DNA of 64,000 nt from Nitrospirota bacterium (GTDB taxonomy: Bacteria > Nitrospirota > UBA9217), in contig CAWFSF010000006.1 of the NCBI GenBank assembly GCA_963818475.1, positions 704,001 to 768,000 of the forward strand, written 5' to 3'. Under the pieces are notes generated by a model. That model made no database searches. It saw only the letters and a list, made by a program, of their open reading frames with translations, and was not told the DNA's origin. Made by a program: the position numbers and the translations under genes. Positions 3,033 to 57,897 of the stretch are shown piece by piece (positions within the stretch are counted from its first letter, which is position 1; the number at the start of each line of letters is the position of its first letter).

Positions 3033-4487
3033 GTGAATATTACCAGTCGTGTAATTTATGTTTCCGTGTTGCTCTTATGTGTCGTTGCTCTAGCTCATTG
3101 CAAAAGAAAATCCGATCCAGTTCTTTACACTCCACCGCCTGAAGCTCCTCAGAACCTAATAGCTACGGCAGGATTGCAGAAAGTCGAGCTGACTTGGGAC
3201 GCCGTGACCAATGCCAGTATCTATTATATCTATTATGTGAAGTCGCCCTTGTCTACGCAATCCGGCATGGGCATGCTCACCAGCGCAGTTACTACGACAG
3301 CTCAACATCTTCATCTGAGCGGAGGTACATACCATTACACTGTAACGGCAGTAGTAAACTCAATTGAAAGCGGACCTTCAAATGTCGCTTCCGCCGGTAT
3401 AAACCTCGTGTCTTTTACTACATCAACGATGGGTTCCGGAGATCTCTCGACTTGGCCCGATGCCGTATCAGCGGGCGCGAAGACGGGCCTGGCAGCTGGC
3501 GACGCTATCTGTCAAAGCCGGGCAGAAGCAGCCGGATTAGCTGGCATATTCAAAGCGTGGATTTCGGATGATTCGGATGATGCTTATTGCCGCATGCACG
3601 GCCTGACCGGCAAGCTTTCTTTAAACTGCGGCTTAAACAGTCTACCGACCAATGCTGGACCGTGGGTCCGCACAGATGGCGCTCCCTTTGCCGATGTTAT
3701 TAGTGTATTAACTGCATCTACTGCAGTCTTAACCCCTGCGGTATATACCGAGAACGGCACACAATCAAATTATGGCTATATGCATTCCGGAACATGGTCC
3801 CAAGGTGTTGGACAAGTTGGGTCCACGTGCAACAACTGGACATCCGGTTCCGCGTCGGATCACGAGATGGTCGGCAGTATACGGTCGACATATAGAGCCT
3901 TGTTTTGGACAAGTAGTCCCTGTAGCAATACATTCCCTTTGCTCTGCATGGAGCTCGGCTCCGGGCCCCCACTCAACAAAAATGCAACGGGCAAAAAGGC
4001 TTTTCTGAGTTCGGCTTCCGGTCCGGGGAATCTCTCGTCCTGGCCTGCTGCAACCGATACCGGGGCTGCAGCGGGAGATGCGATCTGCACCAAGCTCGCG
4101 GCAAATTCCGGATTGACCGGGACGTTCAAGGCCTGGCTTTCGGATGGATCAGTCAACGCTATCGATAGAATTGCGAGCAATGGGCCTTGGGTCCGTCTTG
4201 ATGGAATCAAAGTCTCAGATAGCAAGCAGGATCTTACTGATGACGCTTTATTCACAACGATAAACCTTACGGAACAAGGAACATACGGGAACATGACAGG
4301 AGCAGTATGGACAGGAACAACCCAAAGCGGATTGAAAACGGTAAATAATTGCAATAGTTGGACCGATGGTACTGCAGGCTCGACAGGTACAACAGGCGTT
4401 CTTAGTTGGTTTGATCGTTACTGGTCAAATAATGCAATAACGCAGTGCGATTCTGTTGGATATCTGTATTGTCTTGAAGATGAATAA
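3033..4487 (+). CDS. Lipoprotein with fibronectin type III domain and two endostatin-like (DUF1554-type) domains
   Basis: ALAHC lipobox; PEAPQNL..VELTWDAV..YTVTAV..ESGPS FN3 pattern; twice GDAIC...AGL.G.FKAW.SD...GPWVR.DG...C..WT.G...C....L.C.E; start uncertain (3009 or 3033). Confidence 0.75.
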   Translation: MNITSRVIYVSVLLLCVVALAHCKRKSDPVLYTPPPEAPQNLIATAGLQKVELTWDAVTNASIYYIYYVKSPLSTQSGMGMLTSAVTTTAQHLHLSGGTYHYTVTAVVNSIESGPSNVASAGINLVSFTTSTMGSGDLSTWPDAVSAGAKTGLAAGDAICQSRAEAAGLAGIFKAWISDDSDDAYCRMHGLTGKLSLNCGLNSLPTNAGPWVRTDGAPFADVISVLTASTAVLTPAVYTENGTQSNYGYMHSGTWSQGVGQVGSTCNNWTSGSASDHEMVGSIRSTYRALFWTSSPCSNTFPLLCMELGSGPPLNKNATGKKAFLSSASGPGNLSSWPAATDTGAAAGDAICTKLAANSGLTGTFKAWLSDGSVNAIDRIASNGPWVRLDGIKVSDSKQDLTDDALFTTINLTEQGTYGNMTGAVWTGTTQSGLKTVNNCNSWTDGTAGSTGTTGVLSWFDRYWSNNAITQCDSVGYLYCLEDE

Positions 4488-45562: not shown

Positions 45563-45931
45563 ATGTCAAAATTACACGACCCGAGAGTGTTATTCGCAGC
45601 CGAGCGGACATTATTGGCCTGGAATCGAACGAGCATATCGATCATGGCCTTTGGTTTTGTCATAGAGCGCTTTGGCCTCTTTCTGCAGATCACCGGCAGG
45701 GAAGAGTCTAAGCTATTCCACCGTCACCTCTCTTTCTTTGTTGGTGAGTCCTTTATGCTGCTGGCATCATTACTGGCCATTTACTCGATAGTTCAGCACA
45801 AGAAGATACTGCGGTCCATCAACGTCGATGACGTACCTGCTGGTTATAACCTTTCCATGGGAATGATCGCGAATGGAATTATCGGATTCCTGGGGATACT
45901 ATTAAGTGCCTATGTGTTCTGGGGTCTCTGA
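45563..45931 (+). CDS. Stand-alone DUF202/YidH membrane protein
   Basis: DPRVLFAAERTLLAWNRT...MAFGFVIERF; three TM helices. Confidence 0.9.
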   Translation: MSKLHDPRVLFAAERTLLAWNRTSISIMAFGFVIERFGLFLQITGREESKLFHRHLSFFVGESFMLLASLLAIYSIVQHKKILRSINVDDVPAGYNLSMGMIANGIIGFLGILLSAYVFWGL

Positions 45932-46201
45932 CTTAGGATCGCTCCGTGTCCTTGTTGGCAAATATATAACTCACGCGTTCCATATTTAAACACATCCTCA
46001 AATATTCAATCTTCATAATAATCCTCTCTGAAAAAACAAACCGCTACTGATTTAAAGCCCGAAAACAAAGGCCCATATCATCGTTTCGCCCCTGTTTCTC
46101 CACCCCTTATCCGCAGCCAACTGTTCACTACCGTTCATATCTGAAACGCGCAGCTTTCCACTCAAACCAACTTTACTTCAGCAAAACAATGACATACGTG
46201 T

Positions 46202-46217
46202 TGGCACTGCGAATGCA
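46202..46217 (+). promoter_or_regulatory. sigma54 (-24/-12) promoter
   Basis: TGGCACTGCGAATGCA = GG-N10-GC; upstream palindrome-like GTTCATATCTGAAAC (~46133-46147) may be an activator site. Confidence 0.7.
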
Positions 46218-46258
46218 ATATAGTCAGCAACGCAGTGCACCTGCGAAGGAGGGTTTAT

Positions 46259-46813
46259 ATGGGAAAGAGACAGTTGCTGTTCGTCACTTACGGTGGAGAA
46301 AATCTGGAAGAAGGGGTTTCGTACGCCATTGAGCTGGCAAAGGCGATGTACGAGGACATTACGCTTCTCCTCGTTAAAAAGCCGACCAATCTCATGGACA
46401 AGCTCGGGGACCTGATGACGGCGGTCAGCTTTGCCGAAGCTGACGAGCACGAGACGGCGCGGGAGATCATGGCCGGCGATTCGCCGGAAAAGCAGGCTGC
46501 CTACGACGTGAAGCTCGCCGAGCTCATGGCCCGGTGCAAGCAGGAGGGGATCTCCGTGAACGTCCAGAGGACCGATCTGGATACGGTCTCGGGCATCCGG
46601 TCGTATCTCAAGAACAACAATGGCATCGACAAGGTCGTGCTCAGCCCGGTCATGACCGAGTCCGGGAATGTTACGTCCAAGGATCTGAACCGGCTGGTGC
46701 GCACTGCATCGCGTCCGATCGTGACCATGACGCGGCAGGCGGCGGCGTGGCGTAGGGAACAGAGTCAACGGCGTCTCTCGCAAAGGCGCAAAGGTCGCAA
46801 AGGGAATCCTTAA
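46259..46813 (+). CDS. Degenerate USP-like protein
   Basis: LLFVT...EG.SYAIELAK...ITLLLV and DKVVLS..L.RLV..ASRPIV; the C-terminus runs into a repeat. Confidence 0.6.
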   Translation: MGKRQLLFVTYGGENLEEGVSYAIELAKAMYEDITLLLVKKPTNLMDKLGDLMTAVSFAEADEHETAREIMAGDSPEKQAAYDVKLAELMARCKQEGISVNVQRTDLDTVSGIRSYLKNNNGIDKVVLSPVMTESGNVTSKDLNRLVRTASRPIVTMTRQAAAWRREQSQRRLSQRRKGRKGNP

Positions 46814-46961
46814 ATCTACATCTATTTATTTAAACCAAGGACGAGCTTTTCTTTGCGAGCATAACGTCTGTAAAAAATGAGAAGCTTCGGAGACAAAGAC
46901 AAACAAACAGCAACTCAAGGTTTACGCTCTTCTTGGCGCACTTTGCGCCTTTGCGAGAGAC
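46773..46961. repeat. Palindromic repeat element
   Basis: 21-bp perfect IR GTCTCTCGCAAAGGCGCAAAG / CTTTGCGCCTTTGCGAGAGAC. Confidence 0.75.
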
Positions 46962-47009
46962 CGACCTGATCCGTTTTTATGAATTTAATCTGAAAAGGAG
47001 CTTACGTAC

Positions 47010-47936
47010 ATGTACCTGTATTTACCTGTAGCATTGACCAGCATCAACATCCTGATCCCCGTGGGGCTCGGGCTTGCCGTGGGCCTGCTTTCCGGCCTGT
47101 TCGGCGTGGGCGGCGGATTCCTTCTGACGCCGCTGCTTATCATGTTCGGCATACCGTCGACCGTTGCCGCGGCAACGGACTCCAACCAGATCGTGGCAGC
47201 GTCGACCTCGGGCACCTACGCGCACTGGAAGGTCGGGAACGTCGACTTCAAGATGGGGCTCTATCTCCTGGTCGGCGGCTTTGTCGGCGGCATTCTCGGC
47301 GTCCAGTTGATCAAACTGCTCCATGCCATGGGCAACGCCGATTTCGTGATCAAGATGACCTACATCCTTATGCTCGGCATCGTCGGCGTCTACATGTTCA
47401 TCGAGAGCCTCCAGAGCATGCGGAAGAAAAAGAACAGCTGTCGAAGAAGCGAAGGAAGAGAAAGAGTCCGCCGTGGGCAGGTTCCTGAAGTCTCTGCCGC
47501 TCCAGACCCGTTTTGAAAAGTCGGGCATCACCCATTCCATCTTCGTCCCGATCGTGCTCGGCGCGCTTCGTCGGCATCCTCGCGGCGATCATGGGCGTGG
47601 GCGGCGGGTTCCTCATGGTCCCGATCATGGTCTACATGCTCAGGATGCCGATGCACGTCGTGGTCGGCACGAGCCTGTTCCAGATCCTGTTCACCTGCAT
47701 CGAGGTCACGTTCCTGCAGGCCTACACCAACCACAGCGTGGACTTCATCCTTGCGGTGCTCCTGCTGCTGGGTTCGACCGTGGGCGCCCAGATCGGCGCT
47801 GTCCTTCGGCAAGAAACTCAAGGCAGAGCAGCTCAAGATCCTTCTCGCCACGATCGTGCTTGCCGTGACCGTGAAGATCGTTTTTGAGATGACGCTGACA
47901 CCGTCGTTACTTCTTTCCCAGGTTGGAGGACACTGA
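47010..47936 (+). CDS. TauE/SafE (TSUP) family sulfite/sulfur-oxyanion transporter (three apparent frameshifts)
   Basis: LSGLFGVGGGFLLTP, GNVD.KMG, MGVGGGF.MVP..VY, VVVGTSLFQ. Confidence 0.9.
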
Positions 47937-48743
47937 TGAAACATTTTAGATTGCGGATTGCGGATTGCGGATTGGCGGTCATTACCGCTTTTGTATTCAT
48001 GATCACTTTTGGATTTGCCGCTCCGGCGTCGGCCATGCTGACGGCCAAGGCGAACCATGATCATATCACCATCGATTTCTTCTATCACGGAAGCACCGTG
48101 AGCGTAAAGGGCAATCTCGGAGCCGGGAACGGACCTGGTCATCAAGATAACCTCTCCTGAAGGCCATCAGCTCTTGAAGAAGAAGGGCAAGGTCGGGGGA
48201 ATGCTCTGGATGAACGTGGGACAGCTCAAGTTCGAGAACACGCCGAACTTCTACGAGGTCTTCAGCACGAAGAAGCTTGAGGACATCCTGAGCAAGGAAG
48301 AGATGGAAAAGAACGTGATCGGTTTCCCGGCTCTGGCGAAACACGTGGAGATCACGCCGGTCGCGAACGAGGAAGAGAAGGCCAAATGGTTCGATGAGTT
48401 CGTCAAGTTCAAGGAGGACTCCAAGGTGTATACCAGCTCGGACGGGAATATCACGACTAGCAAGAACGCCGAAGGCAAACAGGAATACTTTATCCTGACG
48501 GACTGGCCCTACCAGGCCCAGCCGGGCGATTATCTGGTGACGGTCTATGCAGTGAAGGACCATAAGGTCGTGGAGCAGGCCAACCTCGAAGGTGAACGTC
48601 GAGCAGGTCGGCATGGTCAAGATCGCTGGCAGGCATGGCCAAAGAACATGCCGGCAATGTACGGGTTCCTGTCCATCGGGGTCGCGCTGAGCGCCGGCTT
48701 CGGCGTGAGCATGGTGTTCAGAAAAGGCGGAGGCTCACACTGA
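47936..48743 (+). CDS. TIGR02186-like exported protein partnering TSUP (two apparent frameshifts)
   Basis: I.IDFFYHG..V.V.G, KKKGKV.G.LWMN, WP..A.PG.Y.V, C-terminal YG..S..VAL.AG TM; a heptamer repeat (ATTGCGG)n is inserted in the signal peptide. Confidence 0.8.
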
Positions 48744-49606
48744 TGTATAACTCCATTGTAGTCGGATATGACGAGTCGCTGTCGAGCAAGGCGGCGCTCA
48801 AGGAAGCGTCGCTCCGGATCAAGCGGACTGGGCGGGAAACTTATCCTCGTGCATTCGGTCTTTTTCGACCAGGAGGAGTTCGCCATACTGCCGGCGCAGA
48901 TGGAGAAGCGGTTCGAGTTCGGGACCCGCGTCTGTCTGGATGCAAAGAAGGACCTTCATGACGAGTTCGGTTTGAACGGAAGCGTGGATTCGCTCGTGTG
49001 TCAGGGCGAGCCGCCCGAGGTGCTTATCGATATCGCCCAGGAGAAGCAGGCGGACCTGATCGCGCTCGGCACCTACGGCAGAAAAGGGCTTAAGCGGCTG
49101 CTGATGGGCAGCGTGACGTCACAGGTGATCCTGAACTCGCCCTGCGACGTGCTCGTGGTTAAGAAGCCCTGCTCGAAATGCGCAGGCGCTTACCAGTCGC
49201 TCCTGGTGCCCTTTGACGGGTCGGAGACGAGCAAAAAAGCGCTGGTCCGGGCCTGCGAGCTGTCAAAGATCGACAATTCCGAGATCTCGGTCCTCTATGT
49301 GATCCCCCGGTACGAGGAGATGATGGATTTCTTCAAGACCGAGACCATCACCAAGAGCCTGTTCCAGGAAGCGGAAAAGATCATGGCCCAGGCGAAGGAG
49401 ATCGCTGCTCTGCAGAAGGTGCAGATCAAGGCGGTGGTCCAGGAAGGCCATGCGGCGAGAAGATCGTCGAGATCGCTGACACGTTCAAGAACGATCTGAT
49501 CGTCATGGGTACCCATGGCTGGCGGGGCATGAACAAGGCGCTCATGGGAAGCACGGCTGAGCGGATCATCGCAAATGCCTCGTGCCCGGTGTTGATCGTA
49601 AGATAG
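48743..49606 (+). CDS. Tandem universal stress protein (two apparent frameshifts)
   Basis: IVVGYDES..S..AL, DLIALGTYGRKG...LLMGSVT..V...PCDVLVV; second domain DLIVMGTHG..G....LMGSTAE. Confidence 0.9.
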
Positions 49607-49625
49607 GGCGACAGGCTAGCCTGTC

Positions 49626-49769
49626 GAATTGGAAATTGGGCGTAGCGACAGGAGACTGTCGAATTGGAAATTGAAGATTGGAAATTTAAGATTGGAAATT
49701 TAAGATTGGAAATTGAGCGGTGGATTTTCTAAATTTACAATATACAATTTCCAACTTCCAGTCTTCAAT
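49626..49769. repeat. Inverted pair of heptamer tandem repeats
   Basis: (ATTGGAA/ATTTAAG)n facing (TTTACAA/TTTCCAA)n. Confidence 0.7.
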
Positions 49770-49803
49770 GGAGCGGAGCGACAAGAGAGCGGAGCGACAA
49801 GAC

Positions 49804-50226
49804 ATGAAAGGTTATCGAAAAGTTCTTATAGCATTGAACGGCCACAAGGAAGTGCTGACACAGGGCATCAAACTGGCGCAGGACGAAAAGACCTGGATCA
49901 CGGTCGTCAAGGTGGTGCAGCCTTTTGACGGCGACCTGAACCTGACGGGCATCAAGAACCTGGATGACGTGCTGGACGACGGCGGGAACGCGGCCCTTTC
50001 CGAGATCAGGAAAACCGCGGAGGCAGAGGGCGCCCTGATCAAGACGAGGCTGGAACAGGGTGACGTGCCGCAGCGGATCGTGGAGGTCGCTGAAGAGGAA
50101 CAGTGCGATCTCATCATCATGGGATCGAAGAAAAAGAAGGGCATCTTCAGCCGGCTGTTCGGCGATCACATCGTGGAAAAGGTCATTGACCGGGCTCCCT
50201 GTCCGGTGTACGTCGTCGGGATCTGA
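49804..50226 (+). CDS. Universal stress protein
   Basis: YRKVLIA, G.V...IV.VAEE...DLIIMGS, VE.VI..APCPVYVV. Confidence 0.9.
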   Translation: MKGYRKVLIALNGHKEVLTQGIKLAQDEKTWITVVKVVQPFDGDLNLTGIKNLDDVLDDGGNAALSEIRKTAEAEGALIKTRLEQGDVPQRIVEVAEEEQCDLIIMGSKKKKGIFSRLFGDHIVEKVIDRAPCPVYVVGI

Positions 50227-50344
50227 AGAATCGGGTCCGGTCTGAGGGCGGCAGCAGGGGAACAGAAGAGCACGATACATGGTTGCGAACGCAACCGGTG
50301 CTCTGCTATCTGAAGACATCATAATAAGGGTATGACACATTCAG

Positions 50345-50378
50345 GAGGAGGCAGGCATCAGCGGCCTCCTCTTTTTTA
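50345..50378 (+). terminator. Intrinsic terminator
   Basis: GAGGAGGC-loop-GCCTCCTC-TTTTTT. Confidence 0.65.
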
Positions 50379-50431
50379 TGAGCTTGACCGGGCAAAGCGA
50401 AGCTTAAAAGATCAAAAAGAACAAGACGTCG

Positions 50432-50546
50432 CTCGCAAAGTTCGCAAAAAAAGGCAATTCAAAGGACGCAGAGAAAGACAATATCATTTTGTCTTAAAAA
50501 AGCTGGATGTAAAGATTTCCTTTGCGCCCTTTGCGAGCTTTGCGAA
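50432..50546. repeat. Palindromic repeat element
   Basis: (CGCAAAG..)n facing (CTTTGCG..)x3, same family as 46773-46961. Confidence 0.65.
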
Positions 50547-50586
50547 AAAAATGTTTTTGTCGTTTTGTTTAGCTTTATGCGGAGAT

Positions 50587-52245
50587 ATGGACATGACAGT
50601 ACAGCATTCATACAACAGACTGGTAACGCGCGGTGTCATTTCCCGCACTGCACTGGACCGGCTTATAGCGGAGGCGTCAGGCATCAGGCGCTGCGCTGGA
50701 AGACCTGCTTTTAAGAGCTGGTGTGCCAAAGCATGAGATCCTCTTCTGCCTTGCCGAGCAGTATGACTGTCCTTTTGTGGAATATGACGAGGGCGTCATC
50801 GTTTCCCAGCAGATCGTCCGGCGCATGGACATGGAGCGGTTGAAGCACGCGTCTCTGGCTTCCGCTCTCCATCTCGAAGGAGAAAGCCGAGGTCATTGCC
50901 TGCTCTCCCGGTGATCCCGGGGTATTGGAGGATATCCGCAGCACGCTGGGCGCCGACGAGGTCGCGTTCAAAGTGGCCCTTCCTTCCGATCTCATAAGGA
51001 TCATCGAACACAATCAGGACCTGAATCCCGGTTTCCCTCCCGCAGCCGGCAGAACGCCGCTCGCAAAGGTGCGGACCTTTCTTGCCAATGCGCGCTCCCA
51101 GTTCGCCTGCTACCGCACCTCGCTGGCAAAGGGGAGGACCGGGCTGGCCTTCTTGCGCACCGGGATCTCGTTCGTAACGACCGCGCTTTTGCTGTTCCGC
51201 GTCTTCGGGATGGGCTATCTCACCATTCTTGAAGCTTTGCTGTTCGCTGCCGGCGTCGGGATGGCGGTAGACGGCCTGCGATGGTATCTGCCTGCGCGGG
51301 CGACGGGAAAGAGCCTGCCCGAGTGTGCTTCTCCGGAACCGACCAACGGCACGAGCGTGCTCGCAGCCGGCTTTAAAGGCGATACTCCCGAATTTCACCG
51401 GACAGCAGAGGTCCCTGGTGCCGACACCCTTCGGCAGGGCTGGAACCGGCTTTCACCCGTGATGCGGCGACGATTCCTGGCGAGCGACCGGACCGATCTT
51501 GCCGAGGAACGGACAACGCTGGCATGCTTTCGGACGCTCATGGCGCGGGCACGGACGGGTCTTTCTTTTACCCGCACCGGCATAACGTTTATCGGTCTGG
51601 GCGTGGCTCTGGCGAGGCAACTCCCCGCAGGACCCTGGAGCGTCGTCGATGCTCTGTTCATCCTGGCCGGTGCGGCCATGGTGGCTGAGGGGTTCTTCTG
51701 GTATGTCCCCGGCCGAAGCGCAGGAGCAAAAGGTTTCGATTCAGTGAAGCGTTCCGAGGAAAAACCGCGCATCTGGGACTTTGTGTTTCCTCCTGCCTTC
51801 GCGCTTACTGCCATGAAACAGACGGCAGCAGGCCCTTCCCCTGGTCAGAGGTTTTTCCGAGCCCGGAATCTGGGCCACGACCGGCCTTGCGCTCGAGCGC
51901 ACGCTTCTTGCCGAACGGCGCAACGTGATGGCACGGCTCCGGACGATCATGGCGCGTTCCAGGACCGGGATGGCGATCATCAGGACAGGTATGAGCATCT
52001 CGGCTGTGGGGCTGGGGCTCCTGGTCTACTTCGGCGCTGCGAGCACGCTCTGGACTCTGTTCGATGCAGCCCTGCTGTTGGTTGGCCTGCTGCTCATCGT
52101 TGACGGGATCTACTGGTATCTGCCTGCTGAACGGGCGAGACAGCAGCTTCCCTACTGTTACGGAGAAATGGAAATTGCCATCCCCGATTACGGCGTTCCG
52201 GCCCGCTCCTGGGGCAAGGCGGTGTTCAGTCATGATGACCTATAG
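50587..52245 (+). CDS. GspE-N/MshEN-like domain plus three DUF202 modules (three apparent frameshifts)
   Basis: LVTRGVIS..LEDLL..GV...IL..LAEQY.CPFV..W.P...V.A..P.D; three (RT.LA..)n-RTG + two-TM modules each ending (D/E)G..WY.P; frame changes near 50690, 50850, 51835. Confidence 0.75.
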
Positions 52246-53449
52246 GATAACCTATGATGTAGATGCCGGGCCGCAAGCCGAGCAGTTCCTCATCCTGCTC
52301 GACTGGGGTGTGCTGACGCAGGAGGAATTCCGTTCTGCCGAGCGTGCGGCGGTCGCCCGGGGCATCGATTTCGAACAGGTCCTCATACGGGAATACGGTG
52401 TCCCGAAACAAACCCTGCTGGCAGCGCTTACCGAATACTATCGATGCCCCTCGATCGAATATGACGAACGGATGCCCGTTCCCGCAGAACTGCTGACCGG
52501 ACTCGACGGCGAACGGCTTTCACTGAACCAGTGGTTCCCGATCATCCACGACAAGAACACGGTCATCATCGCGGCTCGTGACCCCCAGAACCCGCTGCTG
52601 TACGAAGAGGTCCGGAAAGCGATCAAGGCGGAACGCTACGAGTTCCGGGTGGCGCTGGACGAGGACATTCAGTGGTTCATCCAGGACTACCTGCATGCAA
52701 AGCCGGGAACGCTGATCGGGACGGAGCGGACAGGCCTCGCGTACTGGCGCAACACCATGGCCCACTGGAGGACGCGGCTTGCCTGCTACCGGAACGATCT
52801 GGCAGAGGGCCGGACCGATCTCGCCTTCCTCCGCTGGGGGCTGGGGTTTGTCGCCCTGGCAGACGTGCTGCTCCGGTCGCAGACCGACGGTATGGCATGG
52901 GCATACTGGGCACTGAGCGCGGCCGGCACCGTGCTCGGGACCTTCGGCCTCCGGGGGTATCTGAAGGTGCGCAGGACGCGCATGAAGACGCCGGGCCAGC
53001 ATACGCTGGTGGAGGTGACCGCGGCGACACTGCAGTTCCTGGAGAAGTACCACGATCTGGACCAGTGCAGCATCGAACGAACGACAAAAGGGACCATGCT
53101 TGCGCGGCTCGGCGATTGCGTCGGCGGATACAGCACCATCCTCTCTCCCTCTCCGGCAAGCAGGGAACGGACCCATCTGGCACGCGAGCGGAACGTGCTG
53201 GCTGCCCAGCGGACCATCGCCGCCGCGTACCGGACCATTTATGCGCGGGCGCGGACCGGCCTCGCTTTTATCAGGACCGGCGTCGCTTTCACGGGTCTGG
53301 GGTTCGGACTCATGCATTATTTCGCCTTCAGTTGGTCAACGGCTTTTGACGTCCTGCTGATCGCGGCAGGGATCTTCATGGCTATTGACGGGCTGCTGTG
53401 GTATCTGCCGGTGCGGAAGGAACAGGCGGAGGTACCGCGGTGCGGATGA
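52232..53449 (+). CDS. GspE-N/MshEN-like domain plus two DUF202 modules
   Basis: LLDWGVLT..EQVLI..YGV...LLAAL.EYY.CP..WFPI...VIIAARDP; two (RT.LA..)n modules each with two TM helices; overlaps the upstream gene. Confidence 0.8.
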   Translation: MMTYRITYDVDAGPQAEQFLILLDWGVLTQEEFRSAERAAVARGIDFEQVLIREYGVPKQTLLAALTEYYRCPSIEYDERMPVPAELLTGLDGERLSLNQWFPIIHDKNTVIIAARDPQNPLLYEEVRKAIKAERYEFRVALDEDIQWFIQDYLHAKPGTLIGTERTGLAYWRNTMAHWRTRLACYRNDLAEGRTDLAFLRWGLGFVALADVLLRSQTDGMAWAYWALSAAGTVLGTFGLRGYLKVRRTRMKTPGQHTLVEVTAATLQFLEKYHDLDQCSIERTTKGTMLARLGDCVGGYSTILSPSPASRERTHLARERNVLAAQRTIAAAYRTIYARARTGLAFIRTGVAFTGLGFGLMHYFAFSWSTAFDVLLIAAGIFMAIDGLLWYLPVRKEQAEVPRCG

Positions 53450-53542
53450 CGCAAAAGGTTGTACCACGGTGGCTAGGCACAAGATAGAACGTATCGAACA
53501 GTTATGAACCTTTAGAAATCCGTGTTCTGCTAGTTATAGAAC

Positions 53543-54968
53543 ATGATCATGAAAATAGAAAACAAACTCATACTCTCGAACATCATGAACGGCGCGTTCA
53601 TCATCCTGATCGGCTTCTTCGCCTTTCAGAACATGAGCCTCGTGCTTACCAAGCTCAGGTTCGTCGAGATCGCCGACGATCTGAACGCATCTTTTCTCAC
53701 GATGCGACTGTCGGAAAAGAACTATTTTCTCTACCACGACCGCAAGGCGCTCGACGAGATACGGGAAAAGATCACGGACACGATGGACACGATCCAGGGC
53801 GAGAAGAAGGACATCATTCCGGCCATCGGCGAAACAGATCTCAAAAAGCTGGAATCGCTCCTGACGGCCTATTCCGATACGATCGAGGAAGCGCGGGACA
53901 AGAGGCAGCCTGATCCGGAACTGGAGGCGCGGATACGGGCGGCGGGAAAAAAGCTGAAGGAATATTCCGATTCCATAACCCAGCTCGAACGGAAACGGGT
54001 CAGCGATATCATCCTGAACTCGAAGCGGATACTGATCTTCTCGTTCTGGGCCATCCTGTTCTCCGCCTTGTTCATCGGGCATTTCATTTCCCAGAAGATC
54101 CTCAGGTCCTTGCGCGAGATCGAGAAACTGGCAAAGTCCATTTCCGGAGGGCAACTTCAACAAGATAGAAGGGTTCAGGTCCAATGACGAACTGGGCGCG
54201 GTCATCACGGCCATCAATTCCATGTCCGAGGAACTGGGCCATCGCGAGGAGGAGCTTATCCAGTCCAAGAAGCTGGCTTCGCTCGGCATCCTGACCGCGG
54301 GCGTGGCGCATGAGACTCACCAACCCGCTCAACAACATCTCCATGATCGCCCAGACCTACGCCGAGTTGTACGAGAAGCTGAGCGAACAGGACCGCATCG
54401 AGTTCATGAACAAGGTCGATGCGGAGACCGAGCGGATCCGGAAGATCGTGAAGAACCTGCTCGATTTTTCCAAACCCAAGGACGCTACGCCGAGCGAAGG
54501 GGACATCAATTCCGTTATCCAGAAGACGCTCACGCTCGTGCAGAACATGATCGATGTGTCGAACATCGAGACATCGATCCACCTCGCCGACGGTTTGCCC
54601 CATGTGTTCGTCGATGAGCATCAGATCCAGCAGGTCCTGGTGAACCTGGTGACCAATGCGGTCCAGGCCATGTCCACGGGCGGCAGGCTGGTCATTATCA
54701 ACGAGGATCGGGGAAGAACGGAGATTCCGTGGAGATAGGCGTTGCTGATACGGGCAAGGGCATCGCCCCCGAGTTCCTTCCCCATATCTTCGATCCCTTT
54801 TTCAGCACCAAAGGCGAAGGCGGCACCGGGCTCGGGCTTTCGGTCAGCTACGGGATCATCAGGAACCATCACGGAGAGATCAGGGTGGAGAGCAAGGTCG
54901 GCGTCGGCACGACGTTCACGATCGAGCTGCCCCGATACAAGAAAGAGGAGACGAACGATGAAGAGTAA
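53543..54968 (+). CDS. Membrane sensor histidine kinase with HAMP domain (three apparent frameshifts)
   Basis: Two TM, R..EKNYFLY, DELG, KLASLG.L.AGVAHE..NPL, QVLVNLV.NA, DTG.GI, IFDPFF.TK..GTGLGL. Confidence 0.9.
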
Positions 54969-55329
54969 CAGGATCATGGTCATTGACGATGAAAAGATCG
55001 TGGGCGACATGGCAAAATTGTCGCTGGAGCAGGAAGGCTATGTTGTGGAGACGTTCCTGAACGCCGAGCCTGCGCTGAAGCGACTGCAGGAGGAAAAATT
55101 TGACGTTGTCGTGACGGATTACAAGATGAAAGGCATCGACGGCATGGAGGTGCTCCGGACTGTGAAGGACCTCTATCCCACGACCCAGGTCATCATGATA
55201 ACCGCCTTTGCCAATCTCGATGCGGCCATCGAAGCGCTCAGGCGGGACGTTCACGATTTCTTCCCCAAGCCGGTCAAGATCAAGGAATTAAAAGCATCGA
55301 TCAAGCGTGCACTTGAAAAGCACGGATAG
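54958..55329 (+). CDS. Single-domain response regulator receiver
   Basis: IMVIDDE, VVTDYKM.GIDG, MITAF, KP. Confidence 0.92.
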
Positions 55330-55354
55330 GGCATGAAGCAGGATCGCCGTACAT

Positions 55355-57897
55355 ATGCGGGCATTGCTGCGCGCCCTCAAGCGGGGGCCACGAAACCGGG
55401 AGTCCTTTGAGCAGGTGTTCGGGAACTTCAGGGAGGTCCTCGACCGGAACAACCGTTCTCTCGAGATCATTACCGACATGGGCGATACGCTGGGCGGGGA
55501 TTATCTGTTCGATATCCAGTATGTGCGGAGGTCCTATGCCGAGCTGTACGCGGCAATGGGCGGGTCCCTCGAAAGCTTCACCCGACTGACGCAGGACCGT
55601 TATCCCCAGCTTGCGGAGGTGCTTGCGGGCATCGACGAACGGATCAGGCATGGCATCGAGGAGACCCTGCCCGAATCGAAGGAACTGGTCCTTCCCTATG
55701 ACCGGATCGCCAGCGACAGGCTGCGGGAGGTCGGCGGCAAGAACGCCAACCTGGCAGAGCTCAGGAACGTGTTAAAGTTCGAGGTTCCCGACGGATTCGC
55801 TATCACGACGGGTGCCTTCGATGCGTTCATGCGTCATAACCGTGTTTTTGAGAAGGCCGGACTTCCTGCTGAGAATGGCCCGATGTCCCGAAGCCATGCT
55901 CCGGGAAGTTGTATGAGCTGGTGCTGCACGGCGCCATGCCTCCTGTACTCAGCCGCGCCATCGAACAGGCCGTTCAAAAGATCAGATCGCAGTGCGCCGG
56001 ATGCAGCATCGCCGTTCGCAGCAGCGCAGGCGAAGAGGACGGGGAGTTCTCCTTCGCGGGCCAGTTCGATACGGTCCTGAACGTGCCGCTCGATGCGCGG
56101 GAGATCGAGAAAGCATACCGGAAGGTGATCGCCAGCCTCTTCTCCGGCAAGTCGTCCCTCTATCAGGCCCGGCTGGGCCTTCATCTCAAGGACATGAAAA
56201 TGGCCGTTGCATGCGTGGCCATGGTGGATGCCGAAGCGAGCGGGGTCATATATTCCCGCGATCCCGGCGGGGACCTGAACAGCATGGTCATAAGTTCCAC
56301 CTGGGGTCTGGGTGCTGCCATCGTCGAAGGACAGGCAGACGCCGATCTGTTCATTGTCAGCAGGGAGGGCGATCACGAATTGGTCGGAACGCGGATCGGT
56401 TCCAAAAGCTCCATGGTCGTGCCGGCCGTTGGTTATGGTGTGGTCACGATCGCCACGCCGGCTGATAAGCAAGAGCGGCCGAGCCTGCTTGCCGGGCAGG
56501 TTTCCGAGCTGGCCCGTCTGGCGCTGCGGGTAGAAAAACATTTCAGGAGACCGCAGGATATCGAGTGGGCCATCGACCGGCAGGGGCAGATCGTGCTTCT
56601 GCAGACGAGGCCGCTGCGGACGATCGAGGACAGGTTGCCTGCTGCAGCAGGGCACGTTGATCCTGCCCGCCAGGTCATTGCAAAGGACCTGGGCGTGGCC
56701 GTACAAAAAGGCGCTGCCGCAGGGAAGGTCTTTGTCCTGAAGAACGAACGCGAACTTGATGCCATCCCGCGGGGAGCCATACTGGTCGCGCGCCACGACT
56801 CCTCTCATTTCGTACGCGTCATGACCGAGGTGTCGGCCATCATCACCGATGCCGGGGCACCGACGAGCCACATGGCGGCATTATGCAGGGAATTCAGGAT
56901 CCCGACGGTGGTGAACGCGGTCACGGCAATGGAACTGCTCTCCACGGGGCAGGAAATTACGGTCGCGGTGAATGGCAACGGCGCAACGCTTTATGCGGGA
57001 GCGGACCAACGGCTCGCCGCGCGTGCCATGCGTGATGAGGCGTCCATGGAAGAGCTGTTCGAATTCCGCAAGAAGCGCTATTTGCTGCGCTATATCGCTC
57101 CACTCAACCTCATCGATCCGCTCCGGGATGAGTTCGCACCCGGCGCCTGCAGGACCATGCATGATATCCTGCGGTTCATCCATGAAAAGTCAGTCTCGTC
57201 TTTGATCGAATATGCCGAATATGGCGTGCACTCCGGCACGGTCAGGCTGGACCTGCCGATCCCTGCGGGGATCATGCTCATCGATATCGGGGGCGGACTG
57301 GTGAATCCCGCCCGCGCCGACCATATTCCTGCTGAGCAGGTCACCTCAGAGCCGCTTCGCGCGATCATAAGCGGCATGACCCATCCCGGGACCTGGCGTT
57401 CTGATGCCGTCCCGATGCAGGTCCAAGACTTCATGTCGAGCATGCTGCGCGTGCCGGACCTCATGTCGGATAGCCGCGGAGGGGTCGAAACGAACATGGC
57501 GGTCATCTCAAAAGAATATGTCCACATGAGCCTCAAGTTCGGCTACCATTTTATCGTGCTGGATTGCTTCTGCAGCACGAACGCCCGAAACAACCATGTA
57601 TTTTTCCGGTTCACCGGCGGAGCCACTGACATGTCCAAGCGATCACGGCGGCTTCAGCTGATCGCCCTGATCCTGGAGCAGTACGGTTTTAACATCGGAA
57701 CCAAGGGAGACCTGATCGTAGCCCGCCTTGCCAACATGCCGCAAGCAGAGATGCTTGCCGTTCTGGACCAGCTGGGCCGACTTATTTCCTTCACCCGACA
57801 GCTGGATGCCGTGCTGAACGATGACCACGCAGTGAAGCGCTACGCGCAGTCGTTCCTCGACGGGAACTATGTGTACGCCGGTTCTCCGCAACACTAG
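55355..57897 (+). CDS. PEP/pyruvate-binding (PPDK_N) plus phospho-His mobile domain protein, no TIM barrel (frameshift near 55900)
   Basis: VGGKNANLAEL, VPDGFAITT, AVRSSA.EED..SFAGQF.T.LNV, PQDIEWA, LQTRP, SHMA.LCREF.IP. Confidence 0.85.

Follow-up and report, generated by a model that had tools for sequence, protein, structure and literature searches.

The 64,000 nucleotides of the Nitrospirota contig CAWFSF010000006.1 studied here (the window) encode two co-directional, overlapping genes on the plus strand, named P1 and P2 in the following. Both products begin with a domain of the MshEN fold (N-domain) and continue with tandem membrane modules of the DUF202 family (Pfam PF02656), three in P1 and two in P2, and each of these modules carries a long ladder of arginines. 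We propose, with a probability of about one half, that one P1 and one P2 together form a pseudo-pentamer resembling the yeast vacuolar transporter chaperone (VTC), in which an extended arginine-lined barrel would bind and probably conduct an anion or a linear polyanion. To our knowledge no channel has been described that is built as a 3+2 concatenated pseudo-pentamer. Neither this concatenation nor the two-helix module, the six-ring ladder, the MshEN-fold heads or the operon with a dikinase presented below was found described in the literature searched (supplements aside), and the same literature held no paper combining DUF202 with the terms MshEN or GSPII.

The domain content was analysed with Pfam. 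P2 is open and complete and matches MshEN (E 1.9e-11, 44.2 bits, cut-off 23.1) and, in two stretches, DUF202 (E 2.6e-7, 31.4 bits, cut-off 23.4). According to the listing of open reading frames (ORFs) and their translation, P1 is split over three reading frames. Its fragment 50925-51890 matches DUF202 in two stretches (E 1.5e-8, 35.4 bits), the fragment 51925-52242 stays under the same cut-off of 23.4 (E 5.7e-4, 20.7 bits), and the two short N-terminal fragments are assigned to no Pfam family. The intact P1 of a genome from the same genus (549 aa) possesses both domains (MshEN, E 4.1e-8; DUF202, E 3.1e-11, 44 bits), and the P2 orthologue reaches 37.8 bits with DUF202. Single modules cut out of the proteins of eight species match DUF202 in 40 of 40 cases at E ≤ 0.01. 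In the whole assembly six DUF202 matches are found, which are the five modules of P1 and P2 and a YidH protein (45563-45931), while NCBIfam offers no curated family for P1, P2 or a 180-aa gene further upstream. The first-pass annotation had read from the letters two proteins with GspE-N/MshEN-like starts and together five elongated DUF202 modules; both parts of this are confirmed by Pfam, by the single modules and by the module counts in relatives given below.

An AlphaFold 2 (AF2) model of P1 (pLDDT 81.8, pTM 0.78) consists of the N-domain followed by three units, each made of a continuous helix (52-55 residues) and a return helix (29-41 residues). Each module therefore has two membrane helices in this model and not three as in YidH and the VTC subunits; the Pfam model of DUF202 itself spans the first two membrane helices only. 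In the module alignments each of the five modules retains its own identity across species, as it would if every module had its fixed place in a pseudo-symmetric ring.

The ladder was studied in alignments of 122 P1 and 136 P2 sequences, which are 53-93% identical to the first rows. Its repeat is R-[T/N/S]-x-[L/M]-A-x-x with six heptads per module. Twenty-nine of the 30 module-by-layer cells at position 'a' are occupied to about 100% by arginine and the thirtieth by an invariant threonine; position 'b' holds Thr, Asn or Ser, 'd' Leu or Met and 'e' Ala. As arginine makes up about a tenth of the residues, 29 arginines in 30 fixed positions across hundreds of sequences are far beyond chance. In 40 aligned modules arginine is invariant at five heptad-spaced columns, each with an alanine four residues on, in addition to three invariant glycines, and the signature RT-x-LA-x-x-RT at the start of the first membrane helix (TM1) is present in all 40 (R36-T37, R43, Ala at +4). 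The same pattern is seen in the YidH of the window, which has three heptad arginines (R8, R15, R22), in agreement with the roughly three turns ascribed to it before, and three hydrophobic membrane helices. Because YidH has only three such arginines and the Pfam model leaves out the first three heptads of a module, the term "elongated" is correct: the module of P1 and P2 is a DUF202 unit with three additional arginine rings on the cytoplasmic side. The earlier description of a ladder followed by two membrane helices is right in the number of helices, but the last one or two heptads of the ladder lie already within TM1. Within the membrane helix, small residues make up the following 'a' layer in all five modules (T/A, G, A/S, A, S/G), and the layer after it reads R, R, V, R/Q and H.

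The pairing of both genes is strict. Among 61 genomes related to that of the window, 19 (its own included) encode a full-length P2, and three further genomes match P2 through the N-domain only, in frames of 610-816 residues. Loci were fully read in 17 of the 18 relatives, G022 being excluded because its contig starts inside P1. In all 17 loci P1 (546-551 aa, three modules) lies directly upstream of P2 (401-420 aa, two modules), and in 16 of them the genes overlap by 8-14 nt, as judged by the chosen starts. The P1 stop codon of the window (52243-52245) runs 14 nt past the P2 start (52232), so the overlap noticed before is real and conserved. For P1 itself the ATG conserved among relatives is 50593; an in-frame ATG two codons upstream (50587), from which the gene had been started earlier, does exist but is missing from one relative. 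An even sample of 251 genomes of the phylum gave P2 in 44 and P1 in 46 genomes. Both genes are adjacent in all 44 P2 genomes and none of the 251 has P2 without P1, while the two P1 matches without P2 are fragments at contig ends in genomes that are 65% and 78% complete. Hence the genes were not found to occur singly, which had been named as a possible objection to the five-module idea.

Module counts were taken from a scan of one genome per species, in which 196 stretches encode P2 relatives. The best 80 of these are nearly all labelled Nitrospirota, Thermodesulfovibrionales or Dissulfurispiraceae, with three labelled otherwise, and four are cut by contig ends. Of the remaining 76 assessable loci 71 are exactly 3+2 and five are 3+3+2, the latter due to a further three-module P1 paralogue upstream, with the ladders retained in both paralogues. 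The assumption that homologous pairs always sum to five thus has to be softened: judged by these sequences a sum of five is the rule, with these five loci and one two-module P1 variant among database proteins as exceptions. Alternative three-module partners for one P2 would explain the 3+3+2 loci. All five loci (L145, L157, L159, L160, L162; genomes G253-G257) belong to one group of Nitrospirota metagenome-assembled genomes (MAGs) with two tandem P1 paralogues before P2, and the second paralogue aligns from residue 57 only, i.e. its N-domain differs.

The broken reading frame of P1 raises the question whether this gene is a real pseudogene and the system dead in this organism. DNA alignment to two genomes of the same genus places three 1-base insertions at about 50679, 50851 and 51823, which taken by themselves would speak for such a loss. 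However, these insertions sum to +3 with 91-92% identity on both sides, and the intact orthologue of 549 aa spans the broken gene end to end in four tblastn pieces of 65-92% identity. Furthermore, compared to same-genus orthologues (80-97% identity) at least 13 single-base frame changes are found from 46138 to 57891 in seven genes, among them those for the kinase and the permease. P1 is intact with 546-551 aa in 17 of 17 relatives with fully read loci, and contigs of relatives from other public runs have no extra base at the three sites wherever these are covered. The assembly consists of 7 contigs for 4.66 Mb, which seems typical of long reads. Because of the comparable frame changes nearby and of the relatives lacking the inserted bases we read the breaks as indel noise of the assembly rather than as a specific pseudogene, and consider the loss of the system in this organism very unlikely. 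ORF-based annotation between 46138 and 57891 will consequently be fragmented by such unpolished errors. Among the public sequencing runs listed none contained more than 0.10 of the sampled sequence words, and there was no RNA run among them.

For the complex of both proteins one set of predictions was run, in 1:1 stoichiometry only, with P1 residues 140-549 and P2 residues 150-406 of one relative and our own alignments. The interface score ipSAE was 0.60, 0.67 and 0.69 (median 0.67) for P1/P2 and 0.00 for the best of three controls; the mark used is reached by 58 of 80 solved complexes and by 2 of 110 mismatched pairs, a calibration that applies only roughly when, as here, alignments other than the standard ones are supplied. 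At least 68% of the contacts are shared between the runs, the partner pLDDT is 61-63, and the confident interface comprises the long helices only. P1 module 1 packs parallel and in register against P2 module 2 (R160/R320, R167/R327, R174/R334, R181/R341), P1 module 3 touches P2 module 1 (R449/R180), and P1 module 2 makes no contact to P2. This contact pattern is the one that a closed five-helix ring in chain order would give, and the model supports the order M1-M2-M3-M1'-M2' (primes denote P2) with the arginines in register. It likewise supports a binding of P1 to P2, short of showing it. The pseudo-five-fold heterodimer suggested at the outset is accordingly supported by the 3+2 composition, the strict pairing and a modelled ring, and no solved VTC chain was retrieved by the searches described below.

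The module profile was also compared with 1.84 billion representative proteins and gave 3105 matches at E ≤ 0.001, 171 of them at E ≤ 1e-10. The 150 matches listed were evaluated (110 parsed by script, eight more read, 32 as table rows only). Multi-module proteins among the matches listed are P1-like with three modules or P2-like with two. One sequence of 399 aa, from a single 5.8-kb contig, resembles P1 with modules 1 and 2 fused and is either a collapse or a real two-module variant. Two proteins from short contigs (P0340 and P0393; 476 and 487 aa, 49% identical) contain five tandem two-helix DUF202 modules in one chain. These carry the ordinary three-arginine motifs, and a homologue search found one relative only at the sensitivity used. 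These unrelated five-in-one chains lend independent support to five as the working number.

If P1 and P2 assembled differently, say as a 2:2 complex of ten modules or each as a homo-oligomer, the sum of five would be incidental. Such an assembly could account for the 3+3+2 composition in five of 76 loci and for the two-module variant, and the complex model covers 1:1 only. On the other side stand the strict adjacency and overlap with one P1 per P2, a 1:1 model that closes the ring via both ends of both chains and leaves P1 module 2 free of P2, the pentameric nature of VTC and the existence of five-in-one chains. Moreover, the ladders retained in both paralogues of the 3+3+2 loci fit alternative partners for the same P2. 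We therefore regard another stoichiometry as distinctly improbable.

How could such a heterodimer be built and work? The overlapping genes would provide equal amounts of P1 and P2 for a 1:1 heterodimer, and the five DUF202 hairpins (P1-M1, P1-M2, P1-M3, P2-M1 and P2-M2) would be arranged around one pseudo-five-fold axis. In each module the first ~30 residues of the ~52-55-residue helix would reach about 45 Å into the cytoplasm and the remainder would form the inner TM1, with the TM2 return helices as an outer ring. The five inner helices would then constitute a parallel barrel with six stacked arginine rings (29 Arg and one Thr), continued within the membrane by the ring of small residues and the outer ring (R, R, V, R/Q, H). 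By analogy to the TM1 ring of VTC the lumen would bind and probably conduct an anion. Because of the length and periodicity of the barrel the likely cargo would be a linear polyanion, polyphosphate for instance, or a line of oxyanions of the phosphate or sulfate type. With a rise of about 10 Å per heptad and five positive charges per ring, some three to four phosphates of polyphosphate would fall on each ring, which would come near to charge balance. The two MshEN-fold domains would sit at the cytoplasmic tip at ring positions 1 and 4, where they might gate the barrel, and the presumably co-transcribed sensor kinase, receiver and dikinase probably control the pair or act together with it.

Several points weigh against this conduit. 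The inward orientation of the arginines and the radius of the pore are read from contact lists only, and thirty like charges inside a narrow core would be unusual; with Arg at 'a' and Leu at 'd' the helices could also pack as a coiled coil of lower order with the arginines reaching outward. The pLDDT of the complex models is moderate (61-67), and their passing of the mark may partly reflect memory of solved VTC structures. A profile of 40 modules found one chance-level match among the PDB sequences (3ccy_A, E 0.09) and no VTC chain. The proposed Foldseek comparison, extended by VIA-align, retrieved neither a VTC chain nor CorA with the whole 549-residue P1 model, whose helical part has generic helical-repeat and barrel matches only (Z ≤ 10.6, within the noise for helical proteins). 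Because profile and fold searches retrieved no VTC chain, the link of P1 and P2 to VTC is drawn through the Pfam model. The two membrane helices per unit, compared with three in VTC, the 3+3+2 loci and the two-module variant belong to the same side of the balance. Finally, many single-module proteins among the matches listed have 6 to about 20 R-T-x-L-A-x-x heptads before the DUF202 hairpin, and a tube formed by 12-20 heptads would be hard to square with simple ion conduction.

The latter observation leads to the reading that the same five-helix assembly is no conduit at all. The arginine stalk might instead be a receptor or ruler for polyanions (polyphosphate, nucleic acid, anionic lipid or metabolite), or hold structural anions, and inform or anchor the kinase, the receiver and the dikinase. 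Ladder lengths varying from 6 to about 20 heptads among relatives fit a binding stalk better than a pore, the operon with histidine kinase, receiver and dikinase is conserved, and the N-domains have a fold that binds ligands or partners. In addition, one single-module type of Desulfobacterales and allies has a C-terminal receiver domain after TM2; from this fusion it follows that the N- and C-termini are both inside and the ladder is cytoplasmic. Yet the homologous helix of VTC lines a real translocation pore, and the ring of small residues and the outer basic ring carry the polar line on across the membrane. Transport is also indicated by a cyanobacterial relative (P0363; source name Leptolyngbyaceae cyanobacterium), in which an arginine ladder and a three-helix DUF202 are fused to a transporter of the SBF (bile acid:sodium symporter) family. 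A mere receptor is thus a possible but rather unlikely alternative, and we retain the conduit as the preferred reading.

Among the proteins found in the same search, P0337 and P0326 (ERxxLAx coiled coils) were set aside as unrelated, having no membrane module. P0356 and P0378, which have ladder-like repeats and no module, were likewise left aside.

To characterize the N-domains the AF2 model of P1 was compared with known structures. VIA-align aligns it to the MshE N-domain 5htl_B (Z 14.4, rmsd 3.2 Å, 138 residues aligned) and to 2d28_C (Z 13.1), and the Foldseek matches range from E 2.6e-5, reached by the GSPII-B domain of PilF (8pfa_A), to 1.1e-4. The same fold, which occurs in MshE, PilF, PilB and XpsE, and database names such as "type II secretion protein" given to some relatives could suggest that P1 and P2 are accessories of a machine for type II secretion or type IV pili. 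Such names depend on the N-domain alone. Pfam identifies MshEN and DUF202 only, no T2SSE ATPase domain follows the N-domain in P1 or P2, the NCBIfam PilB match of the N-terminus is weak (21-24 bits against a cut-off of 676), and no secretion or pilus gene is present among the annotated conserved neighbours. We give hardly any credit to a role in secretion. For the binding of cyclic di-GMP (c-di-GMP) by MshEN domains a motif of 24 residues, RLGxx(L/V/I)(L/V/I)xxG(L/V/I)(L/V/I)xxxxLxxxLxxQ, in two copies has been published (PMC5013675). This motif, in strict or relaxed form, was found in 0 of 122 P1 and 0 of 136 P2 N-terminal regions. Judging from their sequences the N-domains are probably a cap or docking site rather than c-di-GMP receptors.

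Table 1. Positions of P1, P2, their domains and neighbouring genes in the window. TM, transmembrane helix; USP, universal stress protein; PEP, phosphoenolpyruvate.
Feature	Position	Strand	Description	Basis
P1 gene	50593..52245	+	MshEN-like N-domain and three DUF202 two-helix modules; orthologue 549 aa	tblastn, DNA alignment to same-genus genomes, Pfam
P1 N-terminal MshEN/GSPII-fold domain	50593..51014	+	orthologue residues 1-140	Pfam, AF2 model, Foldseek
P1 module 1	51030..51323	+	orthologue residues 146-243; ladder R153..R188 into TM1, then TM2	
P1 module 2	51447..51740	+	orthologue residues 285-382; ladder R292..R327	
P1 module 3	51856..52155	+	orthologue residues 421-520; ladder T428, R435..R463	
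P2 gene	52232..53449	+	405 aa, intact; MshEN-like N-domain and two DUF202 modules	ORF listing, Pfam
P2 module 1	52706..52993	+	residues 159-254; ladder R166..R201	
P2 module 2	53147..53440	+	residues 306-403; ladder R313..R348	
YidH/DUF202	45563..45931	+	122 aa, three heptad Arg, three TM helices; comparison protein	
TauE/SafE permease	47010..47933	+	conserved upstream neighbour in Nitrospirota	
Alph_Pro_TM protein	48108..48740	+	conserved upstream neighbour in Nitrospirota	
Tandem USP	48743..49603	+	conserved upstream neighbour in Nitrospirota	
Single USP	49804..50226	+	conserved upstream neighbour in Nitrospirota	
Sensor histidine kinase (HAMP-HisKA-HATPase_c)	53549..54962	+	three frame changes in assembly	
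Stand-alone response-regulator receiver	54958..55329	+		
PEP-synthase-like dikinase	55340..57894	+	PPDK_N, PEP-utilizers swivel and ~290-aa C-terminal domain; one frame change	

Looking at the genetic neighbourhood (Table 1), a conserved row was recognized in Nitrospirota: an unknown gene of 165-196 aa, TauE/SafE, Alph_Pro_TM, tandem USP, USP, P1, P2, a HAMP histidine kinase, a receiver and a PPDK_N/PEP-utilizers protein of 850-890 aa. Each gene of this row occurs in 10-15 of 18 regions compared, numbers which come from a crude ORF clustering and are undercounts, and the window has the same order. The 165-196-aa gene upstream of the permease (L035:2534-3073 and orthologues) is present in 10 of the 18 regions and has no Pfam or NCBIfam match. 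The permease and the USPs belong to the row in Nitrospirota only. A search for sigma-54 promoter patterns in the 400 nt preceding P1 gave no match in the window or in 17 loci of relatives. In L034, L037, L046 and L047 the stretch separating P1 from the USP gene contains G+C-rich hairpins with T runs behind them; in G048 this gap measures only about 15 nt. Because of these hairpins the genes from P1 to the dikinase may be a transcription unit apart from the permease and USP genes in several species.

The dikinase, which combines an ATP-grasp part with a phosphohistidine swivel, matches the NCBIfam models of PEP synthase over the first ~475 positions only. Instead of the PEP/pyruvate barrel it possesses a conserved C-terminal domain of about 290 aa with a motif around NNHIYFRF-GGATD--KRSRR (window 55340-57894; L035:11025-13691). 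For this domain no sequence relative was found in the PDB and no Foldseek match at E ≤ 0.001 with an AF2 model of pLDDT 78.3; the best VIA-align hit (Z 7.2) is a generic ferredoxin-like sub-fold, and Atlas returned its own family only. The single-module ladder-receiver gene of Desulfobacterota lies directly before a full-length dikinase homologue (~31% identity) in all 11 of the loci whose contigs continue downstream. Since the Nitrospirota pair loci and the Desulfobacterota ladder-receiver loci both adjoin this enzyme, the core travelling across two phyla is ladder-DUF202 plus receiver plus dikinase. A frame of 623 aa (P0345 and two cluster members of the same length) joins the end of a ladder-DUF202 module and half a receiver to a PPDK_N/PEP-utilizers enzyme; it comes from three sources and may be either a genuine fusion caused by a deletion or an assembly error that recurs.

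The long-ladder single-module genes of Acidobacteriota, Thermoanaerobaculia and Desulfobacterota-type MAGs have another neighbour. Directly upstream a gene with the Pfam domain Cytidylate_kin2 was detected by tblastn in five of six loci, one of them partial (L048-L052, ~3105-3946; not found in L053). In a single case, a Syntrophobacteraceae MAG, a SulP sulfate permease with a STAS domain (L052:1103-2845) is encoded about 1 kb upstream of the long-ladder DUF202 gene.

Taken to its full extent, the operon might be the bacterial counterpart of VTC, in which the dikinase would synthesize or load a polymer of phosphate, or some other phosphorylated polyanion, and pass it through the 29-Arg tube across the inner membrane under control of the kinase and the receiver. 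Ladder-DUF202 proteins would then serve as conduits in a wider family of polyanion exporters coupled to enzymes; Nitrospirota and Desulfobacterota would employ the dikinase for this, Acidobacteriota and others a cytidylate-kinase-like P-loop protein. This joint claim is attractive but speculative, and we regard it as improbable in its entirety.

Bacterial DUF202/YidH proteins are widespread, and no established function was found for them in the literature searched. In this natural concatemer two chains determine how many pore units there are, namely five, and in what order they follow, so that the pentameric VTC-like model becomes directly testable in bacteria with two genes and a particle of about 105 kDa. 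A tube of 29 invariant arginines would be an unusual path for anions or polyanions. The cargo could be approached through the dikinase link, which is conserved in two phyla and may point to an unrecognised bacterial movement of polyphosphate-like polymers.

Comparing P1 and P2 with related systems, the N-domains of MshE, PilF, PilB and XpsE share the fold of the heads, with no ATPase following it in P1 and P2. The single-module ladder proteins, i.e. the receiver fusions of Desulfobacterota and the long-ladder proteins of Acidobacteriota and others, lead the same heptad into a two-helix DUF202 hairpin. They differ by having one module per chain, presumably in homo-oligomers, ladders of 12-20 heptads and no MshEN domain. 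The homopentamer CorA has a cytoplasmic domain, a long stalk helix that runs on into the TM1 lining the pore, and a second helix on the outside; its funnel is acidic or hydroxyl-lined, for cations. It belongs to an unrelated family and its likeness to P1 and P2 is an analogy only.

YidH is of the same family and shows the same (E/N)RTxLAWxRT-type start of TM1 as the modules of P1 and P2. In contrast to these it is a protein of about 120 aa that consists of one module, with three heptad arginines and three membrane helices, and lacks both the N-domain and the tandem arrangement. In passages of PMC10299036 the E. coli YidH is reported from a screen for D-alanine export, in which it did not lower cellular D-alanine; apart from this one negative transport assay the literature searched contained no functional study of bacterial DUF202/YidH.

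The closest known system is yeast VTC (Vtc1 x3, Vtc3 or Vtc2, Vtc4), whose membrane unit is a DUF202 domain of the same Pfam family. The membrane unit and the pentameric principle are therefore known from VTC. It is a pentamer of subunits with TM1-TM3 (bioRxiv 10.1101/2023.01.27.525886), and five TM1 helices line its pore with two basic rings seven positions apart (K24/R31 of Vtc1, K622/R629 of Vtc4); these rings give the vestibule on the cytoplasmic side its positive charge, and polyphosphate translocation requires them (passages of PMC9911596; bioRxiv 10.1101/2023.01.27.525886). P1 and P2 together have five units by sequence, which according to the complex model would stand around one axis with TM1 innermost, and carry heptad-spaced basic residues on TM1 that might face the lumen. 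Neither the SPX nor the TTM polymerase domain of VTC was detected by Pfam in P1, P2 or the scanned conserved neighbours. Unlike VTC with its five separate subunits, three membrane helices per unit and two basic rings, P1 and P2 distribute the five units as 3+2 over two chains, have two membrane helices per unit, and would combine six arginine rings and an outer ring with a cytoplasmic helical stalk of about 45 Å and MshEN-fold N-domains in a bacterial inner membrane.

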